A DNA stretch of 63,247 bases from Kiritimatiellia bacterium (GCA_017563185.1 JAFXIL010000152.1:1-63247), one strand, 5' to 3'; positions 2,357-44,828 are shown, counted from the first letter of the stretch. Made by a program: numbers and translations. Notes: generated from the sequence alone by a model not told the origin.

Positions 2357-3194
2357 TTCTGATTCCTCCATATGTTCCTGACCGCAGATCTATGGATCTT
2401 CCGGCGGCGGCGTCTATGGCGACTGGGCGGACGCGCGAGTAGATGCGTGAAAGCGCCTCCTGGCAGCGCACCGCGCCGCGCCAGTAAGGGACAGCGCCAA
2501 GCCGCCTCACGAGAGGCGCCGCGTCGCCCGCGCCCGCTGCCGCGGCAGCGTCGAACGAGACGAGCGCCGCGCCTGGATCGGCTGATGCGCCCGGCCCTTC
2601 CGGCACAAGATCCTCCATGTCGATTCCGCGGAGCGCGAGCAGCGCCGCAGGATGGCGCGCGATCTCCTCGCCCAGAAGAAGCAGCACTGCCACAAGATGC
2701 TTGCATGGACGTGCCCAGTCGGGGCATGTGCAGTGCATCTTGACGTCATACACAGGCTTCCCCTCGGCGTTCGTTCCAACTGGCGCCGCTTTCGGGAAAA
2801 GCGGCACGCCGTCCGCGCGCAGCAGCTCCTCGACGTCAGTTGGCAGGTCGTCCGCCAATAGCCGCGCCACCAGCATCGGCTCCGCGCGCAGCGCCGCCTC
2901 GGCACTGCTCCCCTCGGGAACTGAAGTGAAGTCGAGCGAGACCTTGTATGGATCGGGACGCGATCCCGTCACGCACGCTTCAACGTGCGACCCTTCGGAG
3001 ACAAGCTCCGTCACCTGCCCCGCGATCGCGTACTGCCTTCCCCTTCCCATGCGCGCGCCAAGGCGCATCGTCTCGAGCGAGGCCACCCACCTGCGCGCCC
3101 ACCAAGCTGAGTGCGTGAGAGTGCGCAGCCCCTGCGCGCGGATGCCGTGCGCCGTGCGCGCAATGCGCAGCGGATAGCGCTTGCGGCTTCCCAT
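2349..3194 (-). CDS. SWIM zinc-finger domain protein
   Basis: 281 aa. CTCPDWARPCKH matches the CxCx(n)CxH SWIM signature. GGAG lies 7 nt upstream of the ATG. Confidence 0.75.
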   Translation of the reverse strand: MGSRKRYPLRIARTAHGIRAQGLRTLTHSAWWARRWVASLETMRLGARMGRGRQYAIAGQVTELVSEGSHVEACVTGSRPDPYKVSLDFTSVPEGSSAEAALRAEPMLVARLLADDLPTDVEELLRADGVPLFPKAAPVGTNAEGKPVYDVKMHCTCPDWARPCKHLVAVLLLLGEEIARHPAALLALRGIDMEDLVPEGPGASADPGAALVSFDAAAAAGAGDAAPLVRRLGAVPYWRGAVRCQEALSRIYSRVRPVAIDAAAGRSIDLRSGTYGGIRNG

Positions 3195-3218
3195 GGCGCG
3201 GCTCCGTGGGTAGCGCCG

Positions 3219-5117
3219 TCAGAGCGACAGCACGTACTCGGCGAGATCCTTGATCTCCTCCTTGGAGAGCTTGGAGGTCTCGCCGTGCTTGTCGCCGGGA
3301 TTGGCGATGGTCAGCACCTCCTCCATCGTGAGGGCGCGGCCGTCGTAGAGATACGGCGCGGTGCGCCAGCACTCGGCAAGGGTGGGGGTGTCGAACTTGC
3401 GGCCGGTCTCGGTGCCGAGGCCAAGGCCGAGGTCATAGAGCTTGAGGTCGGTCCATAGCGTCTCGCCGGCGGGGCTCTTCGCCGAGGGGGCGTGACAGTC
3501 GGCGCACTTGGCCTTCTTGAAGAGAACGGCACCGCGCTTCGCGCGTTCGGAGAGATCGCCGTTCACGAGGTAGGGGCTGGGGACGGGCTTCATCGAGGTG
3601 CAGTAGGCGTCGAAGCAGTGTACGTCCTCTTCCGGGCGCGACACGAACTGGATGTGCACGAGCCCCGCTCGGTTGCAGGTGTGCATGTCCTTGCGGATGC
3701 CTGTGACCATCGTGGGAGGAGTGCAGTGCGAGAAGATTTCGCTCTTGGTCTGCTTTGGATTGCCCATGCCGTCGTTGAGAAGGTCCCAGTTGAGGCCGTC
3801 CACGCGGCCATCGGGGTGGCAGCTCGCGCAGCTCTGCCACTGCTGGAAGCACATGGAGCCGTCGTTGTAGATCATCTCGCCGCGGCGAACGCGGTCTTTG
3901 GAGAGGTCGGTCTTGGGGGCCACCTGGAAGACGCGCGCGACGGCAAGCGCGTCGTCGAGGGCGAAGGTGGAGACGGCGTCCGTGAAGTAGAGCGCCGTCA
4001 TCACGGTGCGGCCGAGGGCCACGATTCCGCGCGGGCCGTCGCCTCCGGCGAGCACCCGGCGGCGGATGGAGACGAGAAAGGCGAGGTCGTTCGGCACGTC
4101 CTCGGCGCTCTTCACGATGCCGCTTGCGCTCTCGCCCTTCGCGGCCTTGACGAGACGGTCGTGCAGCGCCGCGCGGTCGATGATGGAGAGCTCGCATGTG
4201 CCAGCGTGCGCGACGACGAGAGTCTTGCCGTCAGCGGTCACTGCGACGCCCCAGGGATTGGCGCCGCCGCGGTCCACGTCGTCGAGGAGAACGGTGTTCA
4301 CGTACGCGCCCGTGGCGCCGTCGAATACGGAGAGCGCCGCGGTGTTCATCCAGCCGCGCTCGAGCTGCGTGGTGGGCAGCTGGTAGCGTCCCATCGTGTG
4401 CGTCACGTACACGCTCTTGCCGTCCGGCGACACGCCAAGGCCGCGAACGCCGGTGGAGCCGTTAGGCAGCATCACGTGGCGCACCTTGCCGGTTGCGGAC
4501 TCTATCACGCTCACGCTCGCGGCCACAACGTCGTTCGTGGCGGCGCAGTAGGGAAGCATGTTGGCGACGAAGAGGAGACGCCCGCCCTCTCCGAAGCCGG
4601 CCGCGAACGGCTCGCGCAGCACGTCGATGACGCGCGTCACCTTCATGGTGGCGGCATCGACCGCGCTCACCTTGGCCGCGAAGCGGTTCATCACGTACAC
4701 GGTCTTGCCGTCTGGCGAAACTACGGGCGCGCACGGAGAGTGCCCCACCTGTGCCGCCGCAACGAACGTGCCGTCCTCCTTGAACTTCTGCAGCTCGCCA
4801 GCCTGCACGCCGCACGTGACGTAAACGAAGCCGCCCTTGGCCGCGACGCCCGTGGGGTTCACGCGAACGCCCTTCACGGCGCGGCTCTCGAGGCTCCATC
4901 CACCGAGCATGCGCCCGTCAAGGCCCACCCTCGCCACCTTGGCACCGGTGGCGCACGTGGCGAACACGCTCTGGCCGTCAACCGCCGCCGCGAGGAACTC
5001 TGGCGACGCGTACGCGCTCGCGGGCGCCAGCTGCTCGACCGGACCTCCCCAGGCCGCTGCACAGCATGCTCCCGCCAAAATGGAGATGAAAAACCATCCA
5101 CACGACTTATGCATCAT
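3219..5117 (-). CDS. secreted beta-propeller (YVTN/YncE-like repeats) fused to a di-haem cytochrome c peroxidase/MauG-like domain
   Basis: Signal peptide MMHKSCGWFFISILAGACCAAAWG. Repeated SPDGKTVYV-type blades. Two CxxCH haem motifs (CASCH, CADCH) and the FDTPTL...APYLYDG CCP-family signature. Confidence 0.8.
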   Translation of the reverse strand: MMHKSCGWFFISILAGACCAAAWGGPVEQLAPASAYASPEFLAAAVDGQSVFATCATGAKVARVGLDGRMLGGWSLESRAVKGVRVNPTGVAAKGGFVYVTCGVQAGELQKFKEDGTFVAAAQVGHSPCAPVVSPDGKTVYVMNRFAAKVSAVDAATMKVTRVIDVLREPFAAGFGEGGRLLFVANMLPYCAATNDVVAASVSVIESATGKVRHVMLPNGSTGVRGLGVSPDGKSVYVTHTMGRYQLPTTQLERGWMNTAALSVFDGATGAYVNTVLLDDVDRGGANPWGVAVTADGKTLVVAHAGTCELSIIDRAALHDRLVKAAKGESASGIVKSAEDVPNDLAFLVSIRRRVLAGGDGPRGIVALGRTVMTALYFTDAVSTFALDDALAVARVFQVAPKTDLSKDRVRRGEMIYNDGSMCFQQWQSCASCHPDGRVDGLNWDLLNDGMGNPKQTKSEIFSHCTPPTMVTGIRKDMHTCNRAGLVHIQFVSRPEEDVHCFDAYCTSMKPVPSPYLVNGDLSERAKRGAVLFKKAKCADCHAPSAKSPAGETLWTDLKLYDLGLGLGTETGRKFDTPTLAECWRTAPYLYDGRALTMEEVLTIANPGDKHGETSKLSKEEIKDLAEYVLSL

Positions 5118-5163
5118 GAACTCCTTTTTTCTGCAACAATCGATTTGAAAAAGATTGTCTATT

Positions 5164-5192
5164 ATTATACCCTATTTCGTCGCTCAGGGCAA
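5164..5192 (-). promoter_or_regulatory. sigma70-like promoter of the propeller-CCP gene
   Basis: TTGCCC (5192-5187), 17-nt spacer, GGTATAAT (-10 at 5169-5164). AAGGAG SD lies in the ~40-nt leader. Confidence 0.55.
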
Positions 5193-5346
5193 GAATGAAC
5201 CCATAGAATGAACTTTACAGAGACTGTCCTCGAATATCCACAATCAGAAATTCTGCGACAAATAACGGCAGGGACGCACCCACGGCGCGTCCGCAAGACG
5301 GACGGTTCGGAAATCGTCCCCGCCATTGGCAAATACGCAACGACTG

Positions 5347-8300
5347 CTAACGGAAGAGAATGATCATTCCGCCAGGATTCGAGTTAACTAGTTTGAGCTT
5401 GCCGCCCTTCACCATGAGCGCGAAATCTTCGGAATAGTCGTTGCCCTTCTCGTCCGTAACGGCGAGGCCGATGCCCGCAACGGTCTCGGACGTGATGCCG
5501 AGAGCGTCCGATATCTCGTATTCCGAACGACCAGGCTTGCGGTTGAACGTCGCCTTGACGCTCTTGAGACCCGCGAGCGCGTTTGCGTCCGCGTTGTCGA
5601 ACGTCACCGCGCCGTTCAGCTTCACGAGACTGGAGTTTCCTGCCACCTCCCAGCAGTTGTCCTCGCCGGTGAAGCGGAACGGACCCGACAGGGTGCCTGC
5701 GCCCTTCAGCGTGCCGTACACGGGGCACCATCCGCCCTCGCGCGGCGCGTTCACGAGAGTCGATCCAGCGGCGAGCTCAGTCACACCGCCAAGACCGGGC
5801 TTCTCGAACTTCTGCGCGTCGCCGGGAGTGTAGGCGATCGGCAGATAGCGCTCGTCGAACGCATGGTATGCGCCGCCGTTCACCTTGAACTTGAGTGCGC
5901 AGACGTTGCCGTCCGCATCAGTCAGGCCGCCGCCGGTGCCGCCGCTCGTGGTGGAGGAATTGTCGCCGATGCGGATGTCGAACTTGTGCCATCCGGCGCG
6001 CAGCGACATGCTTCCGCTCGCCGTGCCGCAGTTGGCAGTGACCTTGAAGAGACGGCGGCCGTCCACATCGAGCGAGATCTGGTCATCGAAGTTGCCCTGG
6101 AAGGTCCAGAAGCCCTCCTGCCCGGGTTCGACCTTGAAGTAGCCGTCGAAGCGCGTGCATGCGCCGCCGAGGGGCGCGTTCGTGCCCGAAGAGTACTTCA
6201 CGTGCATGATCTGGAGCGAATTCGTCACGGTGTCCATGGCCACATACTTGCTCTCGTCGATCTTGTCGTAGATGCCTAGGTTGCTCGCGGGGTTGATGAA
6301 CTTGCGCCACCTCACGCTCGTGCGCGCGCCGAGGTGCTGGCGCATGCGCATCGGCAGGGTGGTGGTGTCGAACGGACGGTAGGCGGAGTCGCCCGGCGCC
6401 TTGAACGTGTACGACTCCGTTCCGTTGTTTCTGGGGCCGATGGTCTGGTTCGCAGCGTCGCAGTAGATGGAGATCATGAACTTGTGCCAGCCTTCCGTGA
6501 GCGAGATGGTCTTTTCAGTCGTGGTGTTCTTGCCGGCCCTGTCGAGTTCGGTGTCGTCGATCTGCAGGCCATTGTGCACGACGCCGCTGTGGCTGAAGTA
6601 CCATGTGCCCGCCTGCTCCGCGCTCACGTAGAACTCGCCGAAGTAGTTGAAGCCCGAACCGTTGCCGTACTTCACGTCGGAAAGCGCGGACGCCTTCCGG
6701 TTGAGGTACGTGAGCGACGTCGCGACGAACGGCGTGATGACCACATCTTCCAGGTATTTCGGCTGCATTACGTTCCATGCATTGCCGCTCCAGGTCCACG
6801 CGAGGAACTCCACCATGCTCTCGCCTGCGATGTCGAGCGTCGCGGTGGCGTTCTCCGCGAGCGAGAGGCCGCCCGCGAAGCCGGCCGCGTTGCGGAGGTC
6901 GGTCGCGCCGGTGGCGTCGATCGTCCACTTGCCGAGCGGAATGCCCTGGATGCCGGGGCGGTCAAGCGTGAAGGTGCCCGCGCCCGTAAGCGTCACGTCG
7001 CTCGCGCCCATGAGGCCCGTGCCCCACTTAACCGTCTTTCCGTTCAGGTCGAATGTCACCTTGCCGCCCTTCGCCGGGCTGCCGAATGTCGCCCTCATGC
7101 CGGCCTTGCCGATGTTGAAGTTGTCAGACGCGCGAAGCGTGCCGTTCTCCATGTTGAAGGCGGTGCGCTCAGGCGTGGTAAACGCCTCCTTTATGCCGTC
7201 CGAGCCGATTTCAAGAAGCCCGTCCCTGAAGGTGAGCGAGCCCGCGTAGTAGTCGGAACCGATCCAGTTGGCGTAGAGGCCCTTTACGGCGATGTGCGTG
7301 TCCGCGCCGGTGACTGTCCAGTCGCCGCGTCCGTTGCCGTTGCCGATCTCGAGGTTGTTGGCGGAGAACACCAAGTTGTTGGCTTGACCGTCGATGATCG
7401 GTCCACGGTCTTTCGCGGAGGAGCCAGGGCCCTGCATGAAGAACTTGCTGATCGTCCCGGAGCACGCCAGCCCGTCGATGGACGCCGAAATTGCCGGGTG
7501 GAAGAACACCGTGCCGGTATGTCCGCTCGCCGCTGTGATGGTCACCTTGTCCTTGCCGAACTTCGGCATTCCGTATCCGTCGTTGTTCGTGCCGAAAACG
7601 AACGATCCTCCGCCGGTGAGCGAAATGTCGAGCGCGTAGTCGCCCCAGTCGCTGCTGCCGGACGTGTAGGTCTGTCCGCCGGAGATGACGAGGCGGGAGT
7701 CTCCCTGCACCAGCGGCGGGTAGATGTACATGGCACGTCCGGTCCTGATCACGGGATTGCCCTCGTTCACCAGACTGCCGTAGATGTAGTGGTTGCCGTT
7801 CGCCACCGTGATCTCGCCTCTGTTCGTCACGGTCTCCATGTAGTACGTGGTGTGGCCGCCGCCCATCGTGAGCGTGGCCCCCTCGGAGACCGTCAGAGGC
7901 GTCCTGATGTAGCCTGTGCCGCTGTCGTTTCCGATGTAGGCCCTGTCGCCGACGGCCACCATGCCGCCGACGTTCCACGCGCCAGTCGCGGCCCACATCG
8001 AGAATGCGCCGTGCAGCTCGATGCCGTTGGGTATGTTCAGCGTGAAGCTGCCGCCCTCAGGGCAGTAGCAGCCCTCTTCGGCAATCACCATCTTGCCAAC
8101 GGAGATCGGGCCGTGCACGTTGAGTCCGCGCGTGCGGTTGGCCGCGCTGTTCTTGATTGTCAGCGTGGCGTCGGCCGGCCCCGTGATCGAGTTCTTCGAG
8201 TTGCCGCGGATGTCGATGCGGCTCACGCCGCCGATCGTGGCGTCGCCGGTCATTATCACCTCGTTGATCGGCGAGCCCCAGTATTCGTTCTGCGCGGTCG

Positions 8301-21020: not shown

Positions 21021-22253
21021 CTACTCGTAGCGGAGGCAGTCGATGGGATTGAGGCGGCTGGCGCGCCAGGCGGGATAGAAGCCGAAGAACATACCAACAA
21101 ACGCCGAGAAGAGGAACGCCACCATAGTGGAGCCGGTCTCCACGAGGATCGGCCAGCCAAGCATCTCACCGAGAGTCCTTGCGCCGACCAGGCCAAGGGC
21201 CACGCCGATTCCGCCGCCCACGGTTGAAAGCAGCACCGACTCCAGGATGAACTGGGCGAGGATGTTTGCCGGCGTCGCGCCTATAGCCATGCGAAGGCCG
21301 ATCTCGCGTATGCGCTCCGTCACGGAGACGAGCATGATGTTCATGATGCCGATTCCGCCCACTAGAAGCGAAATCGCCGCCACGGCCGCGAGAAGCACGG
21401 TCATGGTGTTCGAGACGCCGCTCATCGTGGAGGTGATCTCGGCCATGTCGATGATGCGGAAGTCGTCGTCGGAATCGTCGCTGAGTCGGTGGCGCTGGCG
21501 AAGGAGCGCGCCTATCTCGCGCTTCGCCTCCTCGATCTGGTCCATCGAGTAGAGCGAGAGCTTCAGCTGGCGCACGTTGTCGGGGAACTTCGAGGCCTGC
21601 AGCACGCGGCGCACAGTGGTGTACGGGGCCAGCACGGCGTCGTCCTGGTCCTGCCCCATGCCGCCCACGCCCTTGGCCTCCAGAAGGCCCTTCACCCTGA
21701 ATGGCATGTTGCCGATTCGTATGTTGCGGCCAACGGGATCCTCGTTCGGGAAGATGTTCGCCGCAACGGTCTTGCCGAGCACGCACACGCGGGCGCACTG
21801 GCGTTCTTCCTGGTCGGTGAAGAAGTCGCCCGACTCCACGCGCCAGTTTCGGATCGTGAGAAACTCGGTGGAGCAGCCGTAGATTGTGGTGTTCCAGTTC
21901 TTGTCCTGGAACACTATCTGCATCTGCGTGCGCACTTCGGGACTTTCGGCCTTCACTATGTGGGCGAGCTCGCGGCGGATGGCTATTCCGTCGGAGGCGG
22001 TGAGGCTCTGCCCCTCGCCGGCGCCGCCATGCACGCCTGCCGCGGCATGGCGCTGCTCGCTGAAGATCATCACCACGTTGTCGCCCATCTTCGCGATCTG
22101 CGCCACCATGTTCTGGCTCGCGCCCTTGCCGATTGCGAGCACCACGATCACGGCCGCGATGCCGAAGATGATGCCGAGCATCGTGAGGGCGCTGCGCGTC
22201 TTGTTGCGCCAGATCGCGCGCATGGCGACGCGGAGGATCATGAACACGTTCAC
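21021..22253 (-). CDS. ABC transporter permease, MacB/FtsX family
   Basis: 410 aa with a GTG start. MacB-type N-terminal TM helix, periplasmic domain and FtsX C-terminal 3-TM bundle. The start overlaps the ATPase stop (GTGA). Confidence 0.85.
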   Translation of the reverse strand: MNVFMILRVAMRAIWRNKTRSALTMLGIIFGIAAVIVVLAIGKGASQNMVAQIAKMGDNVVMIFSEQRHAAAGVHGGAGEGQSLTASDGIAIRRELAHIVKAESPEVRTQMQIVFQDKNWNTTIYGCSTEFLTIRNWRVESGDFFTDQEERQCARVCVLGKTVAANIFPNEDPVGRNIRIGNMPFRVKGLLEAKGVGGMGQDQDDAVLAPYTTVRRVLQASKFPDNVRQLKLSLYSMDQIEEAKREIGALLRQRHRLSDDSDDDFRIIDMAEITSTMSGVSNTMTVLLAAVAAISLLVGGIGIMNIMLVSVTERIREIGLRMAIGATPANILAQFILESVLLSTVGGGIGVALGLVGARTLGEMLGWPILVETGSTMVAFLFSAFVGMFFGFYPAWRASRLNPIDCLRYE

Positions 22254-22990
22254 GCGGCGCCTCCTTCGGCAGGGGCGGACGGCGCGGCGGGCGCGCGGTC
22301 GTCGCGGATGAGGTGGCCGTCGCGCATCAGAAGATGGCGCTTCGCGTAGGCGGCGATGTCGTCCTCGTGCGTCACCATGACGATCGTGATGCCCTCGTTG
22401 GAGAGCTCGGTGAAGAGGTTCATGATCTCGACGGAGCTCTTCGTGTCGAGGTTGCCGGTGGGCTCGTCGGCGAACAGGACGGGCGGCTCGTTCATGAGAG
22501 CGCGAGCGATCGCGACGCGCTGCTGCTGGCCGCCCGAGAGCTGAGCGGGGGTGTGCGTGCCGCGTCCGCCCAGGCCCACCCGCTTGAGAAGCTCAAGTGC
22601 GCGGCGACGGCGTGCGGCACGGCCGAGGCGGCCCATGTAGAAGTCGGGCAGCTCCACGTTCTCGATTGCGCTCGTGCGCGCGAGGAGGTTGAAGTTCTGG
22701 AACACGAAGCCGAGCTTGCGGTTGCGGATGTGCGCGAGCTCGGCGCGCGTGCGGCGCGCCACCTCGATGCCGTCAAGAAGATAGCTGCCGCTAGTTGGAG
22801 TGTCGAGGCAGCCCAGGATGTTGAGCATCGTGGACTTGCCGCTTCCGGAAGCGCCCATGATCGCCACGAACTCGCCCTGGTCGATTGTGAGCGACACGCC
22901 GTCAAGGGCGGCCACCGGCTCCTCGCCCAGCGCATAGATCTTGCGCAGGTCGCGGATCTCGATGAGATGGGCGCTCTCCTGTTGCTTCAC
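22250..22990 (-). CDS. ABC transporter ATP-binding protein (MacB/LolD-like)
   Basis: 246 aa from GTG 22990 ([19 protein letters not shown]). Walker [10 protein letters not shown], signature LSGGQQQRV, Walker B LFADEPT. The track N-terminal extension overlaps the TPR gene and is rejected. Confidence 0.85.
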
Positions 22991-23006
22991 GGCGGCGGCG
23001 CGGGGG

Positions 23007-24419
23007 CTAGCCCTGCTTCTGCTCGTGCATGAGCTTGTTGATCTTGAGCATGCGCTCGTTGAGGTCGCCGAATGTGACGTCGGTGGAGTACACGTCCTTG
23101 TAGTAGTTGTACGCCTTCTCGTAGTCCTTCGCTTCCTCGGCGCAGAGGCCAAGCTGATAGACCACCTTCTTCTTGAGGTCGTCCATCATGGGCAGCTGGT
23201 CGCGCGCGGTCTCGAGCTGCATCACAGCCATGTCGCGCTGGCCCTTCTTGAGGAAGCACATCGCGAGGTAGTATAGGGACTGCAGGCGGTCCTTGGGCGA
23301 CTTCTGCGCGAGCTGCAGATGCTGAATGGCCTCGTCGTAGAACGAAGGCTCCTGGTCGCCGTAGATGTAGTACTGGTAGCCGAGCTCGAAGCGCAGATGG
23401 AGGTCGTTCGGGTAGCGCTCCACGCGCGTCGCGAGGTCGTCGAACACAAACTGGTTCTTCTCGACCTCGAGGTTGTCGGCCTCCTCGGTGCGGCCCTCCT
23501 TGCGCAGCTGCTCGATCTGGTACTCGTAACTTGCGGCCGTCACGGTGGAGAGCATGCGGTCGAGCTCGGGGTCGGCCGAGCTGACGGTCTGCGCGCGCTG
23601 AAGGATGCCCACGGCCTCGGGGAAGCGCTTGTTCTGCATGTAGATTCGGGCGAGCGCGCGGTAGAAGTTGAGGTTGTTGGGCTCCTTCTCGATCTGCGCG
23701 AGCTTCTCGGCGATGAGCGCGTCGGCGTCCGCGCCGACTACGACTGCCTTGTTCGCCTGGTCGAGCTTCTTCGCCTGCTCCTGGTTGGCGAGGATCGCCT
23801 GGAAGCCGCCCTGCTTGCCCACCGTGGCGCTCCAGCCGCTGTTCATGGTGCTCTGCGCCTCGGCGTTCTTCAGAAGCTGGATGATGCGCTGGTCACCCGG
23901 CTTGAGCTGCGACAGCTTCACGTACGCGTCGCGCGCCTTGTCGTAGCGCTTGGCGATCATGTAGTACTGGGCGATGCGCTCAAGAAGCACCACGTCGCCC
24001 TGGTTGCACGAGTAGGCGGCCTCGACGGAGATCGCGGCGGCCTCGGGCATGCCTGCTGCCTCGGCGGCCTTCACGGCGGCGTCGATGTTGTCGGGGTCGA
24101 GCGGATTGACGGCCAGCAGCTTCTCCGCCTCGGCCATCGCCTCGGCGCCCTGGCCCTTCTTCGCGAGGGAGAGTATCTTGGCGCGCTTGCCCATGTTGGC
24201 AAGGCTCTGCAGCTTGAGGGAGAAGCTGGACGACGGGTTCTGGCGGAACTTGGCAATCTGGGCCGTACGCAGCAGACGGCGTGTCTCCAGCGAGCCCGGC
24301 GCGCACTCTATGGCCTGCGAAAGCATCTCCACGGCAAGCTCGTAACGGCCTGCCTCAAGCGCCTGACGGCCCCTGTTTGTAAGATTCTGCGCCTTTTGGG
24401 CGGTTGTGTCATTAGCCAT
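23007..24419 (-). CDS. TPR repeat protein
   Basis: 470 aa. Multiple 34-residue A/Y/L-rich tetratricopeptide-like repeats (e.g. YYLAMCFLKKGQRDMAVMQLETA). Confidence 0.75.
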   Translation of the reverse strand: MANDTTAQKAQNLTNRGRQALEAGRYELAVEMLSQAIECAPGSLETRRLLRTAQIAKFRQNPSSSFSLKLQSLANMGKRAKILSLAKKGQGAEAMAEAEKLLAVNPLDPDNIDAAVKAAEAAGMPEAAAISVEAAYSCNQGDVVLLERIAQYYMIAKRYDKARDAYVKLSQLKPGDQRIIQLLKNAEAQSTMNSGWSATVGKQGGFQAILANQEQAKKLDQANKAVVVGADADALIAEKLAQIEKEPNNLNFYRALARIYMQNKRFPEAVGILQRAQTVSSADPELDRMLSTVTAASYEYQIEQLRKEGRTEEADNLEVEKNQFVFDDLATRVERYPNDLHLRFELGYQYYIYGDQEPSFYDEAIQHLQLAQKSPKDRLQSLYYLAMCFLKKGQRDMAVMQLETARDQLPMMDDLKKKVVYQLGLCAEEAKDYEKAYNYYKDVYSTDVTFGDLNERMLKINKLMHEQKQG

Positions 24420-37740: not shown

Positions 37741-37770
37741 TTGCCTTACATGCCTCAATTGTTGTATAAT
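37741..37770 (+). promoter_or_regulatory. sigma70-like promoter of tRNA-Ser
   Basis: TTGCCT (37741-37746), 18-nt spacer, TATAAT (37765-37770). The tRNA 5' end lies 15 nt downstream. Confidence 0.6.
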
Positions 37771-37784
37771 ATCCGCACCTTTCA

Positions 37785-37874
37785 GGAGGGTTGGCGGAGC
37801 GGTCGATCGCGGCGGTCTTGAAAACCGTTGACCATTCACGTGGTCCGGGAGTTCGAATCTCTCACCCTCCGCCA
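37785..37874 (+). tRNA. tRNA-Ser (anticodon UGA)
   Basis: Manual cloverleaf. Acceptor stem GGAGGGT/ACCCTCC, anticodon stem GCGGT/ACCGT with loop CTTGAAA, long variable arm GACCA/TGGTC, T-loop GGGAGTTCGAATCTCTC, and an encoded 3' GCCA. Confidence 0.92.
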
Positions 37875-38720: not shown

Positions 38721-39897
38721 TCCAGGTGATCCTTCCTTCTAGCGCCGTGCACACGGGCCATGCGGAGAAGCGCATTCCGGCGAACGGCTGGTTTGATGAT
38801 TTCGTGTGAAAGAGAGACGGGTCCACGGCGCGGTTCGCCTTGAGATCCATCACCGTGAAGCTGCGCGCGGAAGGCGTCTCGCCGATGAGGGCGGCGGGGC
38901 CTGTCGTCCACCTGGCGGCCCAGTCGGCGGGGCTCATGCCCTCCCCCTCCACCATCACGCGCCATGTTATCGCGGCCGCGGTCTCGAGGCCCACTATGCC
39001 GTTTGCCGAAGTTGCGAAGCCGCCCTGCTTGCGCGAGGCGTGGTGAGGGGCATGGTCCGTCGCGAAGAGCCCCAGAGTGCCGTCCTTCACGCCTTCGCGG
39101 ATCGCCGCCACGTCCTCGCGCGTTCCAAGGGGCGGCGCCATCTTCCAGTTGGCGTCGTCGCGCGGAATGTCGTCGCACGAGAGCAGCAGATGGTGCGGCG
39201 TCGCCTCGCCCGTCACCGGCAGGCCCTCGCGCTGCGCCGAGCGTATGAGCTCCACCGTGCCGGCGCACGAGATGTGCTGCACGTGGAGCGCGCAGCCCGT
39301 CACGCGACAGATCGAGATGTCGCGCCGCACGGCCTCGGTCTCTGCCTCGGGAGGCATCGTCGGAAGGCCGGACCGGCGCGCCACGGCGCAGTCGCGCATC
39401 ACGCCGCCTGCGAGCAGAGACGGCACCACGGCGTGCTGCATCACGGGGCGGACGAGCTTTGCCGCACGGCGCATCGCCGCCTCCATCACATGGGCGTCTT
39501 CCACGAACGAACCGTCGTCCGTGAAGGCCACCGCACCCGCTGCGGCAAGCGCCTCGAGGTCTGCCACCTCGCGCCCGAGGCGCCCCTTGGTGATGCACAC
39601 GGAAGGCGCGATGCGCACGGGCAGAGACGCATCTTCGATCTGTTCGCGCAGCCACTCCGCGCTGTCGCCCGCCGGCGTGGTGTTCGGCATCGTTGTGACG
39701 CACGTGAAGCCTCCCGCTGCAGCAGCCGCTGCCCCCGTCGCGCGCGTCTCAGCCTCCGGCGTGCCGGGATCGCGGAAGTGCACGTGCACGTCGCGCAAGC
39801 CGCCCGGTACGATGAAATACCGGGATTCGTCGCGGTACCGCTCTGGCACCGCCGCGGCATCTAAAGCAGAACCATGTGTCTTGACACTGTTTGACAT
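38701..39897 (-). CDS. pyrC: dihydroorotase
   Basis: 398 aa from ATG 39897 (MSNSVK...). The track start at 39921 is a GTG that lies inside the promoter. DVHVHFRDPG metal-binding motif and TTMPNTTP. Confidence 0.85.
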   Translation of the reverse strand: MSNSVKTHGSALDAAAVPERYRDESRYFIVPGGLRDVHVHFRDPGTPEAETRATGAAAAAAGGFTCVTTMPNTTPAGDSAEWLREQIEDASLPVRIAPSVCITKGRLGREVADLEALAAAGAVAFTDDGSFVEDAHVMEAAMRRAAKLVRPVMQHAVVPSLLAGGVMRDCAVARRSGLPTMPPEAETEAVRRDISICRVTGCALHVQHISCAGTVELIRSAQREGLPVTGEATPHHLLLSCDDIPRDDANWKMAPPLGTREDVAAIREGVKDGTLGLFATDHAPHHASRKQGGFATSANGIVGLETAAAITWRVMVEGEGMSPADWAARWTTGPAALIGETPSARSFTVMDLKANRAVDPSLFHTKSSNQPFAGMRFSAWPVCTALEGRITWNGHEVL

Positions 39898-39903
39898 GGC
39901 CCT

Positions 39904-39932
39904 ATTATACCAAATTTTCACGGTGCGCGCGA
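39904..39932 (-). promoter_or_regulatory. sigma70-like promoter, leaderless geometry (pyrC)
   Basis: TCGCGC (39932-39927), 17-nt spacer, TGGTATAAT (-10 at 39909-39904), then 6 nt (AGGGCC), then ATG 39897. Confidence 0.6.
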
Positions 39933-39936
39933 AAAT

Positions 39937-40812
39937 TCAACGGGGCTCGTCATCGTCGGCAATGCCGAATCCGCGCGGACCGTATATGCCGTTGCCAGAG
40001 CTGATGAATGCGCTGTGCGTGGCCTCGTCCACCCAGCCTGGCTTTCCGCCTGCCATGTACGGCTGGTGGAAGGCCTCCACGTGGCCGTCGAGAAACGCCA
40101 TGTTGCAGTGGCGCTTCGAGCCTGCACCGTGGCGGAAGGCCTGCGTGCCGGCCTTGCGAAGCGATGCGGCGGAATTGTCGTAGTGCTTGTCCTGAAACGG
40201 CGCACGCATGAACTTGTTCGGTCCGCCCGAGTAGCCGCCATCGCCGAACACCACCACGCGATCCGGGTGGAGCACGTCGTCGAAGCGCGTGGGATACATT
40301 CGCGAGCCCTTGTCGTTTTCAACGCGGCCGAGGAAGCAGACATTGTAGTTGTAGCCGGTCATGCGGTTGCCGTCCCAGTTGTCGCTACGCTCCTGCCGGC
40401 ACTTGGGGCAGCACATCACGTCGTCCATGCGCCAAGAGTCGAACATCTCGCCGCACTGCCATCCCTTGTCCGCACCGGCGAGGCGGCGGAAGTCCCAGCA
40501 GAAAGACGCATATTCGCTCCAGGACGATATCCCATGCCGTTCCGGACGCTCCCTTGGATACAGAATCTGCGCAAGCTCGCCTTTGCAGTACGTCTCGTCA
40601 TGCGTGGAAGGCTCAATCATTCCCCATGGGAACACCCCCTCCCTTTGCGAGTACTCGAAGCATACAAGCGCCAGCTGCCGCAGATTCGACCGGCAGCCGA
40701 CGTCAAGAGCCTCCTCCTTCGCATCCATCGCAGCGGGCACCAGCAGTGCGGCGAGCAGCACGATCATGCCCACCACTATCATCAGCTCTACGAATGTGAA
40801 GCCGCGCCGCAT
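39937..40812 (-). CDS. prepilin-type N-terminal cleavage/methylation domain protein, DUF1559 / H-X9-DG-like pseudopilin
   Basis: 291 aa from ATG 40812. RRG|FTFVELMIVVGMIVLLAALL prepilin signal with Glu+5. C-terminal NMAFLDGHV motif typical of the DUF1559 family. The ATG overlaps the stop of the upstream gene (TGATG). Confidence 0.85.
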   Translation of the reverse strand: MRRGFTFVELMIVVGMIVLLAALLVPAAMDAKEEALDVGCRSNLRQLALVCFEYSQREGVFPWGMIEPSTHDETYCKGELAQILYPRERPERHGISSWSEYASFCWDFRRLAGADKGWQCGEMFDSWRMDDVMCCPKCRQERSDNWDGNRMTGYNYNVCFLGRVENDKGSRMYPTRFDDVLHPDRVVVFGDGGYSGGPNKFMRAPFQDKHYDNSAASLRKAGTQAFRHGAGSKRHCNMAFLDGHVEAFHQPYMAGGKPGWVDEATHSAFISSGNGIYGPRGFGIADDDEPR

Positions 40813-43226
40813 CAATCCAATTCCAACGCCAGTTTGAAGAACCTTCCCGAACCGGCGGCGGGCAGCGAGAACATGTTGAGCCAGGTGCCGTCGCCCTGAT
40901 CTTCAGACGAAACGAACGTCGGCACGGCGGAAGTCCATTCCGCGCCGAGGGTATCGGCCTTCTTCACCACAAGCCCCTTCGGAGTTCCGGTGAACTGGGC
41001 GGGCGAACGGAGGCCGAAGACATGCTCCGTCTTGCCGGGCGCGAACGACTCAAGCTTGAACTGCACGCTCGCTGGAACCGCTTGCGCAGGCCCAACTCCA
41101 TACAGGTAGTTGAGGGCGTTGGGCAGTCCGTTCGCCGCAGGCGCGTCTGGCGTGGCCTGCCAGGCAGTCGCCCAGTCCGTGTAGCTGCGCTCGCGCCACA
41201 GCTCATAGCCGGATGCAGGCGCGACGTCCGCCACGGCGTCGATCTCAGGCTCCGTGAAACCGGAGTCGCCGTCATCGTTCGGCTCCTCGGAATACGCGCA
41301 GGATATCTTCACATAGCGGAACCACTTGCGCCCCTGCGCGTTGACGGGCAGGCCGTCAACGTCCGCAAGATCGTACCCCGCTCCGCCGGCCGAGCCGTTG
41401 TAGCGCTGGCACAGCTCGGCGAGCGTGAGGCCTGCGCAGTCGGAGAAGTCGATACGCGGATCGACCGGAAAGGTCGCGTCGGTCTTCGCACCCCACCATC
41501 TGTTGCCGTCGTAGAGCGAGGCGTCGGCGTTGGAAGGATCGTAGCGGTGGCCTAGCGTGGGCGCAAAGCCATCGCCCGTGCGCCACTTCGAGCTCGTGTA
41601 CCAAGGACCGTCCTTGCTCTGTGCCACCTCGATGACAGACTCTTCAGAGATGCCCCCGCCCGTGAGCCGGCATTGCGCAGGGTCGTCGAGCGCAGTCATG
41701 CCGGCTGAGGACGTCTTCGTGCAGCCGGAGTTGCCGAACACGATGAAGTCCACCCCGAACGGATTGTCGGGATCGTCCACCACGTCATGGTCGAACGCGA
41801 TCGTCACATACCCCGGCTCCTTGTCGTCGGGCGAGACGAGCGAAAGGTGCAACCCCTTCGCGTATGCCGGCACCGCGGGATTTGCCACGCCGCCGTACAA
41901 ATCCGACGACACGCCGCCAATGTTCCCCGAATAGAGCGGCAAGAAGCGGGCCGGTTCGCCCAGTACGTTCTCAGGGGCCTTGAACCACGGGTGCGTGGCT
42001 CCGGTGGAGCACTCCACCACCTCGGCGCCGTAGGGCGACTCGGTGGGGGCTGCGTGCGCCGAAGGCTCGGCGGCAGCAATGGAGCCGTCCAGCGTGGAAA
42101 GATAGTCGCCTTCGTTGTACGCGAGAATCGTCCACGCTCCATCTGCAAGGCGCTGCTCGCCGATTCCCACCGACGCCCATGTGTAGGCAGTCGCGCCAGT
42201 GCGGAAGAAATTGTCCGGCTCGGTCACGAGATTGAAGTAGTGGTACACCCACGTGTTCCAGTCGTCGGGGTCCACGTAGTCCACCGAATACGGCGCAATC
42301 CACGCCGACGGATCCGACGCGGAATACGCCTTCCAGTTGTACGTCACGCCGCCTACGTCGGCCGCGTCGTATCCGAACGTGTCGAGATTGAATCCCCAGG
42401 ATTCGGACGTGATGTGCGGGACGAGTCTGCCGTCCGCCGCCGCGATCGCCTCGATCGCATCCTTCACCGTGGGCGCCTCATCGCCGTCCCAGCGGATTCC
42501 CCACGCGCGCGTCTTGCCGGCGCCCCACGAGATCGCGATTCCGGACCTCTTCTCGCCTGCTCCTGCCCAGAGCGTGATGTCGTCGAGGCGGAACGTGCGC
42601 GGTGCGGCAGCGGGCGTCTTCTCAGGCGCGAACTCGTCGACGATGTAGGACCAGCCGGTCATCTCCATGGCATACGAGGCAAAGCGCAGCGACAGCCACT
42701 GTCCGTTGACGGGGAACACCTCCGCGATGACGGCGTCGGTGCGCCTCCATTCAAGGTCTTCGAACGACTTGCCCGTAGCATACGCCGCCGCCCAGTCGTC
42801 GCCGGCCATGTACATGTTTGACTCGTCGATCTCGTCGTAGTCGTACCACGGCTGCGGGAAAAGATCGTCCTTGTCGCTCTTGGTGTACGTCTTTCCGGTA
42901 CGGAACGTGCCGCCGTCGTCGTCCACGTCGTATCCGAATCCGCTCACCCATCCTGAGTCGGATATGAATGAGGCGAGGCGGGGATCGTCGGCTGCGATCT
43001 CGTCGAGTATCGCCTTGAAGCTAGGCGCGTCGCCGTTCCAGCGGTAGCCCCAGGCGAAGGACGAGTTCATTACGCTGCCGTCGTTGAAGTCGATCACCAC
43101 GGCGCACTCGTTCGTGCCGCTCCCGACCCAGTACTTGATGTCCGTGAACGAAAAGCCCCATGACGAGGCCGACACCAGCGAAGCAACGGCAACGGCCGTT
43201 GTCGCAAACAACTTTCTGCTCTTCAT
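40812..43226 (-). CDS. secreted 804-aa protein of unknown function with duplicated N-terminal domain
   Basis: Start at ATG 43226 (MKSRKLFATTAVAVASLVSASSWG signal peptide). Two ~80-aa repeats (WVGSGTNECAVVIDF...FAWGYRWNGDAP...ILDEIAADDPRL and WAGAGEKRSGIAISW...RAWGIRWDGDEAP...AIEAIAAADGRL). Preceded by the B12 riboswitch-like leader. Confidence 0.8.
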   Translation of the reverse strand: MKSRKLFATTAVAVASLVSASSWGFSFTDIKYWVGSGTNECAVVIDFNDGSVMNSSFAWGYRWNGDAPSFKAILDEIAADDPRLASFISDSGWVSGFGYDVDDDGGTFRTGKTYTKSDKDDLFPQPWYDYDEIDESNMYMAGDDWAAAYATGKSFEDLEWRRTDAVIAEVFPVNGQWLSLRFASYAMEMTGWSYIVDEFAPEKTPAAAPRTFRLDDITLWAGAGEKRSGIAISWGAGKTRAWGIRWDGDEAPTVKDAIEAIAAADGRLVPHITSESWGFNLDTFGYDAADVGGVTYNWKAYSASDPSAWIAPYSVDYVDPDDWNTWVYHYFNLVTEPDNFFRTGATAYTWASVGIGEQRLADGAWTILAYNEGDYLSTLDGSIAAAEPSAHAAPTESPYGAEVVECSTGATHPWFKAPENVLGEPARFLPLYSGNIGGVSSDLYGGVANPAVPAYAKGLHLSLVSPDDKEPGYVTIAFDHDVVDDPDNPFGVDFIVFGNSGCTKTSSAGMTALDDPAQCRLTGGGISEESVIEVAQSKDGPWYTSSKWRTGDGFAPTLGHRYDPSNADASLYDGNRWWGAKTDATFPVDPRIDFSDCAGLTLAELCQRYNGSAGGAGYDLADVDGLPVNAQGRKWFRYVKISCAYSEEPNDDGDSGFTEPEIDAVADVAPASGYELWRERSYTDWATAWQATPDAPAANGLPNALNYLYGVGPAQAVPASVQFKLESFAPGKTEHVFGLRSPAQFTGTPKGLVVKKADTLGAEWTSAVPTFVSSEDQGDGTWLNMFSLPAAGSGRFFKLALELD

Positions 43227-43264
43227 TTTCGTGCTTTCCCTTTTATGCGAAGGTATGCTGCCGT

Positions 43265-43410
43265 GGACGCGCAATCGTCTCCTGGCTTCCGGCTTAAAGC
43301 CTCCTCCGCCGCCTTCGCGGGCCACCCGGTCCACTGGAAATGGCGGATTCGTATCCGGTCACAGTTGCGCAACAGCGCCCGAATCGCACGAGCTTCCGTT
43401 ATCCGCGTCC
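43265..43410 (-). promoter_or_regulatory. cobalamin (B12) riboswitch aptamer (candidate)
   Basis: Minus-strand RNA reads GGACGCG-GAUAACGGAAGCUCGUGCGAUUCGGGCGCUGUUGCGCAACUGUGACC...CCAGUGG...GCGAAGGC...GAAGCCAGGAGACGAUUG-CGCGUCC. It shows the conserved GGAA/GUGCGAUUC/GCUG..GCGCAACUGU core, a B12-box-like AGCCAGGAGAC, and a 7-bp closing P1 helix (GGACGCG/CGCGUCC). It begins about 8 nt after the predicted TSS. Confidence 0.75.
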
Positions 43411-43424
43411 CTGAAACGTCCAAT

Positions 43425-43454
43425 AGTATATCGCACTCCGCCCCGCGCCGTCAA
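43425..43454 (-). promoter_or_regulatory. sigma70-like promoter of the riboswitch operon
   Basis: TTGACG (43454-43449), 18-nt spacer, TATACT (43430-43425). Confidence 0.6.
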
Positions 43455-43485
43455 TCTCCGACACGCGAAATCCGGAACGCGGCAA

Positions 43486-43514
43486 TTGACGCGAAAAGGA
43501 AAATTCGGTACAAT
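43486..43514 (+). promoter_or_regulatory. sigma70-like promoter (small ORF / tilS)
   Basis: TTGACG (43486-43491), 17-nt spacer, TACAAT (43509-43514). An ATG follows 7 nt downstream. Confidence 0.6.
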
Positions 43515-43521
43515 TCTACCC

Positions 43522-43704
43522 ATGCCACGCTACTATCCATATCAATACCGCGCGCCGCGACGTCCGAGGCGCCTCACCTGGTACTCTGTGATAACGCAGA
43601 TATTCACACTCATCGGGCGCCTTGTGGGACGCGCCGCGTCAGGCCGGGGCGGCGCCGCCGCACCCGCGCCTCGCCGCGCGCCTTCCCGCCGCGCTTCCCG
43701 CTGA
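43522..43704 (+). CDS. possible leaderless small ORF (60 aa, Arg-rich with one hydrophobic helix)
   Basis: MPRYYPYQYRAPRRPRRLTWYSVITQIFTLIGRLVGRAAS... The ATG lies 7 nt after TACAAT and the TGA overlaps the tilS ATG (TGATG). Codon usage in the first half is atypical, so this region may instead be a non-coding leader. Confidence 0.3.
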   Translation: MPRYYPYQYRAPRRPRRLTWYSVITQIFTLIGRLVGRAASGRGGAAAPAPRRAPSRRASR

Positions 43705-44828
43705 TGCCTCGCATCCCTCCACATTCCGCGCAGCCCCGCAGGCGCATCGGCCTCGCCGTCTCCGGCGGGGCCGACTCCACCGCACTCCTCGTGCTGATGG
43801 CCGGCCTTCAGGCCAAGCACAACTTCGAGGCCGTTGTGCTGCACGTGGACCACGGAATCCGCGCCGACTCCGCCGAAGACGCCGCCCACGTTCGCCGCCT
43901 CGCAGAGACGTTCGGCCTGCCGTTCCACTCCACGCGCGTCAAGGTGAGACGCCGTAAAGGCGAATCGATCGAGATGGCCGCACGCCGCGTGCGGCTCGGC
44001 TTCTTCTCGAAGATGACACGCCGCCTGAAGCTCGACGCCATCGCCACCGGGCACCACGCCGACGACGTTGCCGAGACGTTCATCCTGCGCCTCGCCCGCG
44101 GCGCCGGCCCCGCCGGGCTCGCCGGGCTCAAGCGCATCTCGCATGTTGGCGACATCACCTTCATCCGCCCGCTTCTCGACCTGCGCGGCGACGACCTTCG
44201 CGCCTTCCTCCGCTCGCGCGGAATGACATGGCGCGAAGACTCCACCAACGCCGACACGTCCATCCTCCGCAACAAGGTGCGTCACGTGGTGATTCCTTGG
44301 CTCTGCAAGAACCTCGACCCGCGCATCACCGAACACCTCTGCAAATCGGCCGCCATCCTCCGCGGAGAGCTCTCGCTTGACGCCAAGGATGCACCCCCCG
44401 CCCGCCGCCCGTCCAAGGCCGATCAGCCCAAGACAAGATTCTCCCTTGAGATATCGCCCTCCACCGGATTCGAACGCCGCCCGCAGTCGATCGGCGTCTT
44501 TCCCGCAACATGCGAAATCGCCCGCAGCGCCATTTCCGGACGCTCCATCGAACTACGGTCATGGCTTCCCGGCGACCGCATAGCCCCCACCGGCATGGGC
44601 GGCCACGCGAGAAAGCTTCAGGATGTCTTCGTGACGGCCAAGGTCCCGCCAGCTCTGCGCGCCACGCTTCCCATTCTCGCCTATGCCAACTCGAACGAGG
44701 TCATCTGGGTGCCAGGCTACAGAATCGCCGCGTCTGCGGCGGTTGCCTCGCCCCAAGCTCCCAGCTGGCGCTTCACGCTGAACGAATCAGACGCGGCTAC
44801 CTCTTCTTCCCCATCCCGAAAAGCTTGA
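43704..44828 (+). CDS. tilS: tRNA(Ile)-lysidine synthetase
   Basis: 374 aa from ATG 43704 (MPRIPPHSAQPRRRIGLAVSGGADS, PP-loop SGGxDS). HHADD motif and TilS C-terminal domain. The track extension back to 43245 is rejected. Confidence 0.88.
   Translation: MPRIPPHSAQPRRRIGLAVSGGADSTALLVLMAGLQAKHNFEAVVLHVDHGIRADSAEDAAHVRRLAETFGLPFHSTRVKVRRRKGESIEMAARRVRLGFFSKMTRRLKLDAIATGHHADDVAETFILRLARGAGPAGLAGLKRISHVGDITFIRPLLDLRGDDLRAFLRSRGMTWREDSTNADTSILRNKVRHVVIPWLCKNLDPRITEHLCKSAAILRGELSLDAKDAPPARRPSKADQPKTRFSLEISPSTGFERRPQSIGVFPATCEIARSAISGRSIELRSWLPGDRIAPTGMGGHARKLQDVFVTAKVPPALRATLPILAYANSNEVIWVPGYRIAASAAVASPQAPSWRFTLNESDAATSSSPSRKA

Follow-up and report, generated by a model that had tools for sequence, protein, structure and literature searches.

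The window, by which we mean the whole 63,247-nt stretch of DNA analysed here (JAFXIL010000152.1:1-63247, from the Kiritimatiellia bacterium assembly GCA_017563185.1), carries an operon of two genes behind a cobalamin riboswitch. All features are numbered from the first letter of the window, and those of the operon and its leader are on the minus strand. The complete riboswitch aptamer occupies 43265–43410 and is located between a σ70-type promoter-like site (43425–43454) and the start codon of gene 1 (ATG 43226). Gene 1 (40812–43226) encodes a secreted protein of 804 amino acids with a Sec-type signal peptide (MKSRKLFATTAVAVASLVSASS) and no lipobox, and gene 2 (39937–40812) encodes a prepilin-type protein of 291 amino acids with an N-terminal cleavage/methylation motif and features like those of the DUF1559/H-X9-DG proteins. 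A first-pass annotation of this DNA had placed a secreted-protein/pseudopilin operon behind the leader, which is what these two products constitute. The ATG of gene 2 (40812–40810) overlaps the TGA of gene 1 (40814–40812) by one base, in the sequence TGATG, and the two genes are translationally coupled. Taken together, it is likely that the leader is a functional riboswitch of family RF00174 set over a two-gene operon, with a proposed role of the operon in capture of B12 and a proposed OFF control by way of a kissing loop.

The cobalamin riboswitch and its expression platform

The whole 63-kb window was searched against all 4227 Rfam families, and two matches reached the gathering score. One is a tRNA-Ser(UGA), and the other is RF00174 (Cobalamin) with 61.2 bits at 43397–43277 on the minus strand (E = 1e-12), about twice the gathering score of 31.5 bits. 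The first-pass annotation had called the leader cobalamin riboswitch-like, and the only structure of that kind in the window; both statements are borne out, the identity by this match and by the covariation described below. The alignment is local and covers model positions 47–167 of 189. The matched core (43277–43397) contains all core elements of the family, namely the J3/4 junction GGAA, P4/L4, P5/L5, P6 with an extension, ACUG, GAAGG and the B12 box AGCCAGGAGAC, and the core string quoted earlier for this locus is found in the minus-strand sequence. What had been described as a B12-box-like sequence, GAAGCCAGGAGAC, is the B12 box at 43289–43277, which is matched by RF00174 and falls on near-invariant columns in related leaders.

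By the RF00174 alignment, P4/L4 reads GCUCG-UGCGAUU-CGGGC and P5/L5 reads UG-UUGCG-CA. The CUCG/CGGG hairpin with a UGCGAUU loop that was listed as a P3-type stem is therefore present, but it is P4/L4 in the standard numbering. The loop L5, UUGCG at 43372–43368, is the proposed partner in a kissing loop, as judged by the RF00174 structure line and a complementarity test. The limits of the aptamer were taken from the sequence, RF00174 and the leader alignment, and it is closed by the 7-bp helix P1 that had been noted before, with the 5' strand GGACGCG (43410–43404) pairing with the 3' strand CGCGUCC (43271–43265, CGCGTCC in the DNA). The pairing ACGCG/CGCGU is also found in the related leaders L003, L008 and L009, where the L numbers are those of the loci in our comparative scan. 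The stack from P1 to P3 is shortened: beyond the 7 bp of P1 there are a bulged G43272, the pairs G43403·U43273 and A43402-U43274, a small internal loop and the two pairs C43398-G43276 and G43397-C43277. An extra P2 segment (UUGCGACNGGGAAAAC ... GCUCCCNGCCGC) is found in most related leaders but is absent from the window and from L001, its closest relative. As a riboswitch the element is an ordinary member of RF00174, with the lack of P2 as a minor architectural peculiarity. Since the aptamer has a P6 extension it is probably responsive to adenosylcobalamin.

The promoter-like site upstream of the aptamer consists of TTGACG (43454–43449) and TATACT (43430–43425) spaced by 18 nt, and transcription is expected to start around 43418, 8 nt ahead of P1. 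An independent scan recovered this promoter, which the earlier annotation had pointed out, with 10 of 12 matches; in the 2-kb region scanned there are two sites, versus 0.2 ± 0.5 in shuffled sequences. The TATACT hexamer is kept in the ortholog L001.

An alignment of 24 leaders located upstream of gene 1 homologs has 22 invariant and 17 near-invariant columns. RNAalifold applied to these leaders recovers P3, P4, P5 and P6, and compensatory double changes are present in 14 of the 20 consensus pairs, so that the conserved core both aligns and covaries in orthologous leaders. The leader is in addition conserved in its placement between promoter and Shine-Dalgarno sequence. In L001, which comes from a metagenome-assembled genome of roe-deer omasum, the protein is 93% identical and the leader is nearly the same (66.8 bits), with differences that preserve the pairs. 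By this relative the window itself is assigned to a rumen Kiritimatiellia.

Downstream of the aptamer a P13-like hairpin (43239–43253) is formed by CCUU (43253–43250) and AAGG (43242–43239) with the loop CGCAUAA (43249–43243). The Shine-Dalgarno sequence AAAGGG (43243–43238) is spaced by 11 nt from the ATG at 43226, and four of its six bases (AAGG) are the 3' strand of the 4-bp hairpin; the whole segment, CCUUCGCAUAAAAGGG, spans 43253–43238. This hairpin forms in the minimum-free-energy structure, in line with the earlier suggestion that the Shine-Dalgarno sequence could pair with an upstream CCUU. A terminator scan gave no terminator-like site between the aptamer and the ATG. The first four bases of the hairpin loop, CGCA (43249–43246), are complementary to UGCG of L5 (43371–43368). 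Nine other leaders in all keep the hairpin, seven as CCUUCGCAU(G/A/C)AAAGG (L001, L007, L008, L014, L016, L017 and L042) and L003 and L009 as the one-base variant CCUUCGCUUGAAAGG.

In 17 of the 26 leaders examined, the 35 nt that precede the ATG contain a complement of 4 nt or more to the leader's own L5, as compared to 7.3 ± 2.2 when this zone is shuffled (maximum 15 in 1000 trials) and 6.5 ± 2.1 when L5 is shuffled (maximum 13), a statistic that is inflated, and to that extent counts against our interpretation, because the leaders are phylogenetically related. The partner sequence follows L5, so that UUGCG is found with CGCA(A), UCGUG with CACG and UCGCG with CGCG. A kissing loop between L5 and L13 is reportedly present in the structurally characterised cobalamin riboswitches, and the pattern in these leaders fits the signature of a translational OFF switch built on such a contact.

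In the proposed mechanism, transcription of the leader would start from the TTGACG/TATACT promoter, and the B12-bound aptamer would present L5 (43372–43368) to the hairpin loop CGCA (43249–43246). This contact would lock the otherwise weak 4-bp hairpin, whereby the ribosome-binding site is hidden and translation is off, and without B12 the ribosome-binding site would be open. That the B12-bound RNA hides the Shine-Dalgarno sequence by the L5/L13 contact seems likely from the sequence features given above, and from these we infer the OFF logic of the riboswitch.

Genes 1 and 2 and their occurrence in other genomes

The product of gene 1 has no match to any Pfam family at E ≤ 0.01 or to NCBIfam, no PDB chain is found by sequence at E ≤ 1, and a profile search gave nothing relevant. 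It consists of two N-terminal modules that resemble the β domain of transcobalamin (residues 30–200 and 205–392, approximately), a conserved central domain (approximately residues 395–672) and a C-terminal β domain. The modules are characterised by the motif WVGxGxN..VIDW..AWGYRWNG..D.RL..FGYD, which is present in two copies in gene 1 and in one to four in its relatives. A full-length AlphaFold2 model based on 100 homologs has a mean predicted local distance difference test score (pLDDT) of 88. In a comparison of the full model with the PDB, the cobalamin-binding β domain of transcobalamin is the sole coherent match, with 5np4 at probability 1.00 and 5no0 at 0.99, both with a template modelling (TM) score of 0.72 on the target, together with several full-length transcobalamin entries. 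When module 2 was modelled alone (pLDDT 80), each of its top 11 hits was to transcobalamin, to intrinsic factor or to 3u7z, a bacterial DUF4430 protein, and the best match was the transcobalamin β domain with probability 0.96. The central and the C-terminal domains gave no informative fold or family match.

A link between gene 1 and DUF4430 at the level of sequence was considered and rejected since the profile searches were empty, and the likeness that remains is one of fold. As the Foldseek E-values of the modules are marginal (0.04–0.5) and no profile connects them to DUF4430, the similarity to transcobalamin is a fold-level resemblance of the models and not a family assignment. On the basis of these models we are inclined to think, with some reservation, that the gene 1 protein binds corrinoids through its transcobalamin-like modules.

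In L003:5953-9033, L006:2833-7236, L007:2488-5724 and L082:8001-11111 the domains of the family are divided between neighbouring genes: the first kind encodes N-terminal transcobalamin-like repeats only (up to about 1000 amino acids) and the second the central and C-terminal domains (about 430–440 amino acids). In the window protein the two parts are fused.

Gene 2 reaches 16.9 bits against TIGR02532 (cut-off 16.3), with the N-terminus MRRGFTFVELMIVV. Its score for DUF1559 (PF07596) is sub-threshold, 18.8 bits against a gathering score of 23.3, a cut-off that is passed by its orthologs in L019, L047, L057 and L066. PF07596 is also assigned to many database relatives, and the Joint Genome Institute uses the name "prepilin-type processing-associated H-X9-DG protein" for relatives. 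The C-terminal H-X9-DG model TIGR04294 has no match in gene 2, where the corresponding sequence reads RHCNMAFLDGHV, i.e. H-X6-DG; it is passed by the orthologs in L019, L043, L047, L057 (at the 19-bit cut-off), L060 and L066.

The next gene downstream, pyrC, is preceded by an extended -10-like sequence of its own, TGGTATAAT (39897–39912, minus strand), 6 nt ahead of its ATG at 39897, which suggests that pyrC is transcribed from a promoter of its own, possibly as an mRNA with no leader or almost none. Both pyrC and the purine-nucleoside phosphorylase gene were considered as targets of the riboswitch and judged unlikely, as they are found behind the cassette only in L001. Because pyrC has its own TGGTATAAT and follows the cassette in L001 alone, the regulated unit should be the two genes.

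The gene 1 family is unannotated and comprises about 125 clusters. A locus scan with one genome per GTDB species, built on a narrower alignment of the family, returned 80 loci from rumen and gut Kiritimatiellia, Lentisphaerae, Verrucomicrobia, Planctomycetes (Phycisphaerae and Pirellulales) and Desulfobacterales. At 57 of the 80 loci a riboswitch of the cobalamin class reaches the gathering score upstream of the gene 1 homolog and on the same strand. The upstream DNA is shorter than 400 nt at 9 of the 23 negative loci, and L031, L032 and L038 have sub-threshold matches (26–30.6 bits) exactly at the expected position. One more locus from outside the 80, L082, has a riboswitch of 64.1 bits. Immediately behind the homolog there is a pilin-like gene in the same orientation at 66 of the 80 loci; of the 13 loci that lack this gene, 5 are on contigs that end within 30 nt.

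Genes for a type-II, BtuFCD-like ATP-binding cassette (ABC) importer are next in L010, L011, L017, L019, L032 and L036, with the domains Peripla_BP_2, FecCD and ABC_tran in various fusions, and clustering places similar importer genes, as candidates, behind the cassette in L004, L034, L035 and L037. The gene pair is thus linked to cobalamin riboswitches across phyla and to BtuFCD genes in at least six loci. In the BtuFCD position L020 (9032–10669) and L025 (4263–5900) have a gene for a 545-residue channel protein of the ComEC type (Pfam "Competence", E = 2e-53), which has a 4-nt overlap with the stop of the pilin-like gene.

Bacteroidales relatives of the type IX secretion system (T9SS) kind (P0117) were considered as members of the cassette and rejected, as they have no B12 context and share a domain only.

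Several loci deviate in their arrangement. L005:2887-3774 is the sole locus that has the pilin-like gene right behind the gene for the secreted protein but in opposite orientation, owing perhaps to an inversion or to an artefact of assembly. Loci of Phycisphaerae and Pirellulales, e.g. L047:7827-8612, have ComF-like genes (double zinc ribbon and phosphoribosyltransferase) behind the cassette. The riboswitch-controlled operon L018:1306-8633 has, ahead of the cassette, two more pseudopilins of the N-methyl/type II secretion system G type (1523–2581 and 2578–3297) and a protein of 893 amino acids without Pfam match (3276–5957). Cobalamin riboswitches are found in tandem, two each in the Kiritimatiellia loci L039:3629-4131 and L040:3652-4124 and three in the deltaproteobacterial L062:1789-3645. 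Loci of the Desulfobacterales type contain several small central-domain paralogs in series, and in these loci cyclic di-GMP (c-di-GMP)-I riboswitches adjoin the cobalamin ones (L055:2424-2508 and 5304-5380, L059:2141-2233, L062:3769-3904, L069:882-959 and 5671-5793), which hints at a dual control by B12 and c-di-GMP.

Proposed function and alternative explanations

From its sequence and context the gene pair is probably an undescribed cassette for capture of B12, or corrinoids in general. The secreted gene 1 protein would bind B12 via its transcobalamin-β-like modules, and the pilin-like partner, anchored in the inner membrane or assembled from there, would pass B12 onward to a BtuFCD-type importer whose genes are located elsewhere in the same genome. 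The part of the partner, i.e. a relay of B12 across the periplasm to the inner-membrane importer, is speculative and offered tentatively; the idea comes from the gene linkage and from features of DUF1559 that recall pseudopilins and solute-binding proteins. A more general scheme, which we regard as possible though short of probable, is that bacteria of the Planctomycetes-Verrucomicrobia-Chlamydiae (PVC) superphylum (Kiritimatiellia, Lentisphaerae, Verrucomicrobia and Planctomycetes) and some Desulfobacterales acquire B12 by a system not described before, in which corrinoids are taken up by a secreted binder made of transcobalamin-β-like modules and a periplasm-spanning or retractile DUF1559/H-X9-DG pseudopilin, dedicated to this task, delivers to BtuFCD or, in some genomes, to a ComEC-like channel.

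Several observations speak against the proposal, and they are taken here with the explanations that they might favour. In the RNA, the canonical P2 is absent from the window aptamer, several non-canonical pairs are marked in the Rfam alignment, and model positions 1–46 and 168–189 are unaligned, the 7-bp P1 being nonetheless present. Thermodynamic folding alone does not single out the 210-nt leader (z = +1.28), and its minimum-free-energy structure fails to reproduce the aptamer fold. The missing P2 segment, the non-canonical pairs and the unremarkable z-score could indicate a chance resemblance, or a decayed relic without regulatory function. However, the z-score carries no weight against the element because the family depends on tertiary structure, and for cobalamin riboswitches, which are rich in such structure, it is usual that the aptamer is missed by thermodynamic folding. 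With the RF00174 match at the E-value given above, covariation over 24 leaders, the near-identical L001 leader with its pair-preserving differences, and the conserved placement, a relic is extremely improbable, and the match, the L001 leader and the covariation have effectively refuted it already. A real riboswitch could on the other hand act mainly on transcription, by Rho-dependent termination or by mRNA decay after a block of translation. The stem of the expression platform and the kissing loop have just 4 bp each in the window, and the relatives that form the largest group, with UCGCG as L5 and CGCAUGA as loop, have a complementarity of 3 bp; moreover, the G+C content of the genome is 64%, and Rho sites are not recognisable in a sequence. 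Rho-dependent attenuation is known for the btuB leader of E. coli. There is, however, no intrinsic terminator between the aptamer and the ATG, the Shine-Dalgarno sequence is inside the hairpin at 11 nt from the ATG, and a position-specific complement to L5 is kept beside it in many leaders, so that a mainly transcriptional switch appears quite unlikely and the translational kissing-loop switch is favoured.

With regard to the genes, 11 loci with adequate upstream DNA are without riboswitch also after the sub-threshold matches have been counted. A BtuC/BtuF/ComEC-type importer was sought in the window and none was found, only a generic ABC ATPase (22250–23152). The Pfam profiles DUF4430 and Cobalamin_bind are unmatched, and no family is found at E ≤ 1 in 30 members of the gene 1 family. 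The cassette might be no uptake device but have some surface or secreted role that is simply shut down under ample B12; it could for instance encode an adhesin or an enzyme used to forage from partners that produce B12, or a protein that binds corrinoid precursors or other tetrapyrroles. This would agree with the central domain of 280 amino acids and the C-terminal domain, which lack a fold or family match, with a transcobalamin similarity that is fold-level only and has marginal E-values, with the Bacteroidales relatives, which have about 30% of the protein in common and sit in a non-B12 context, and with L020 and L025, where the next gene is ComEC-like and not BtuC. Against it stand the link to a cobalamin riboswitch in 57 of 80 loci over several phyla, the repeated presence of BtuFCD-type importer genes in the same operon, and the fact that the sole consistent structural match is the B12-binding domain of cobalamin carriers. 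A function other than uptake is therefore considered unlikely, and B12 capture is kept as the preferred role.

The riboswitch as such adds nothing to riboswitch biology, and its value is that of a reliable label for B12-related genes behind it. In at least 57 genomes of several phyla this label is attached to a gene pair that has neither annotation nor literature, and the cassette would be a concrete and testable entry point into the roles of DUF1559 proteins. Kiritimatiellia of rumen and gut are competitors for B12, and the route of its uptake matters for corrinoid ecology. A relay by the pilin-like partner, if true, would be the first function for a member of the very large and enigmatic DUF1559 family and would constitute a B12 route through the envelope that is independent of the TonB-dependent BtuB.

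Related systems and neighbouring features

The window RNA has the core in common with the class I, AdoCbl-type members of RF00174 (btuB of E. coli, Thermoanaerobacter tengcongensis, env8), and like these it is located in a 5' untranslated region and has an L5 complementary to a hairpin that bears the Shine-Dalgarno sequence. It differs from the consensus in having GAUUGC after the B12 box instead of CCUGCC, and from typical members in its short P1–P3 stack without P2 and its platform stem of 4 bp. The kind of gene that it regulates has not previously been tied to B12.

The closest functional analogues of the proposed cassette are BtuG and BtuH, which are reportedly surface lipoproteins for B12 capture in Bacteroides, encoded in riboswitch-controlled btuB loci. 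Like the cassette products they are extracytoplasmic accessories under control of a cobalamin riboswitch and encoded beside B12 importer genes, and their presumed task is to gather B12 before it reaches the transporters in the membrane. Gene 1, in contrast, has no sequence similarity to the solved members in the PDB search, is not a lipoprotein (its signal peptide is without Cys) and has no β-propeller match. The partner in the cassette is pilin-like, and the hosts are bacteria of the PVC superphylum and some Desulfobacterales. Among those neighbours of the cassette that were scanned with Pfam there was no gene of the BtuB type.

The modules of gene 1 share a predicted fold with the β domain of transcobalamin, intrinsic factor and haptocorrin and with DUF4430 (5np4, 5no0, 2pmv, 3u7z), at probabilities of 0.96–1.00 and TM scores of 0.62–0.72 on the target, and the B12 context is shared as well. 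Unlike the carrier domain they are about 170–190 amino acids long with an extra β-sheet part, have no detectable profile relationship to it, and in the gene 1 family one to four of them are joined to a large domain without family match. A literature search for DUF4430 together with B12 gave nothing relevant.

Gene 2 has the prepilin cleavage/methylation motif in common with the pseudopilins of type II secretion and competence, but it is located outside any secretion or pilus cluster and is coupled to a B12-regulated secreted protein. With regard to the DUF1559 (Pfam SBP_bac_10) H-X9-DG family, the orthologs pass the cut-off and gene 2 itself is below it. This family has many copies in Planctomycetes and relatives. 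No paper on the function of DUF1559 was found, as judged by titles and abstracts, and a full-text search for cobalamin riboswitches with DUF1559, prepilin/pseudopilin, Kiritimatiellia or Planctomycetes found no link.

Upstream of the operon and divergent from it is tilS (43245–44828, plus strand), identified by its PP-loop and TilS_C domains, with a promoter-like sequence TTGACG-17-TACAAT (43486–43514, plus strand) that faces it and stands back-to-back with the riboswitch promoter. The tRNA-Ser(UGA) found in the Rfam search (37785–37874, plus strand) is located between the purine-nucleoside phosphorylase and α-L-rhamnosidase genes in opposite orientation to these, and is directly preceded by a promoter-like sequence TTGCCT-18-TATAAT (37741–37770, plus strand).

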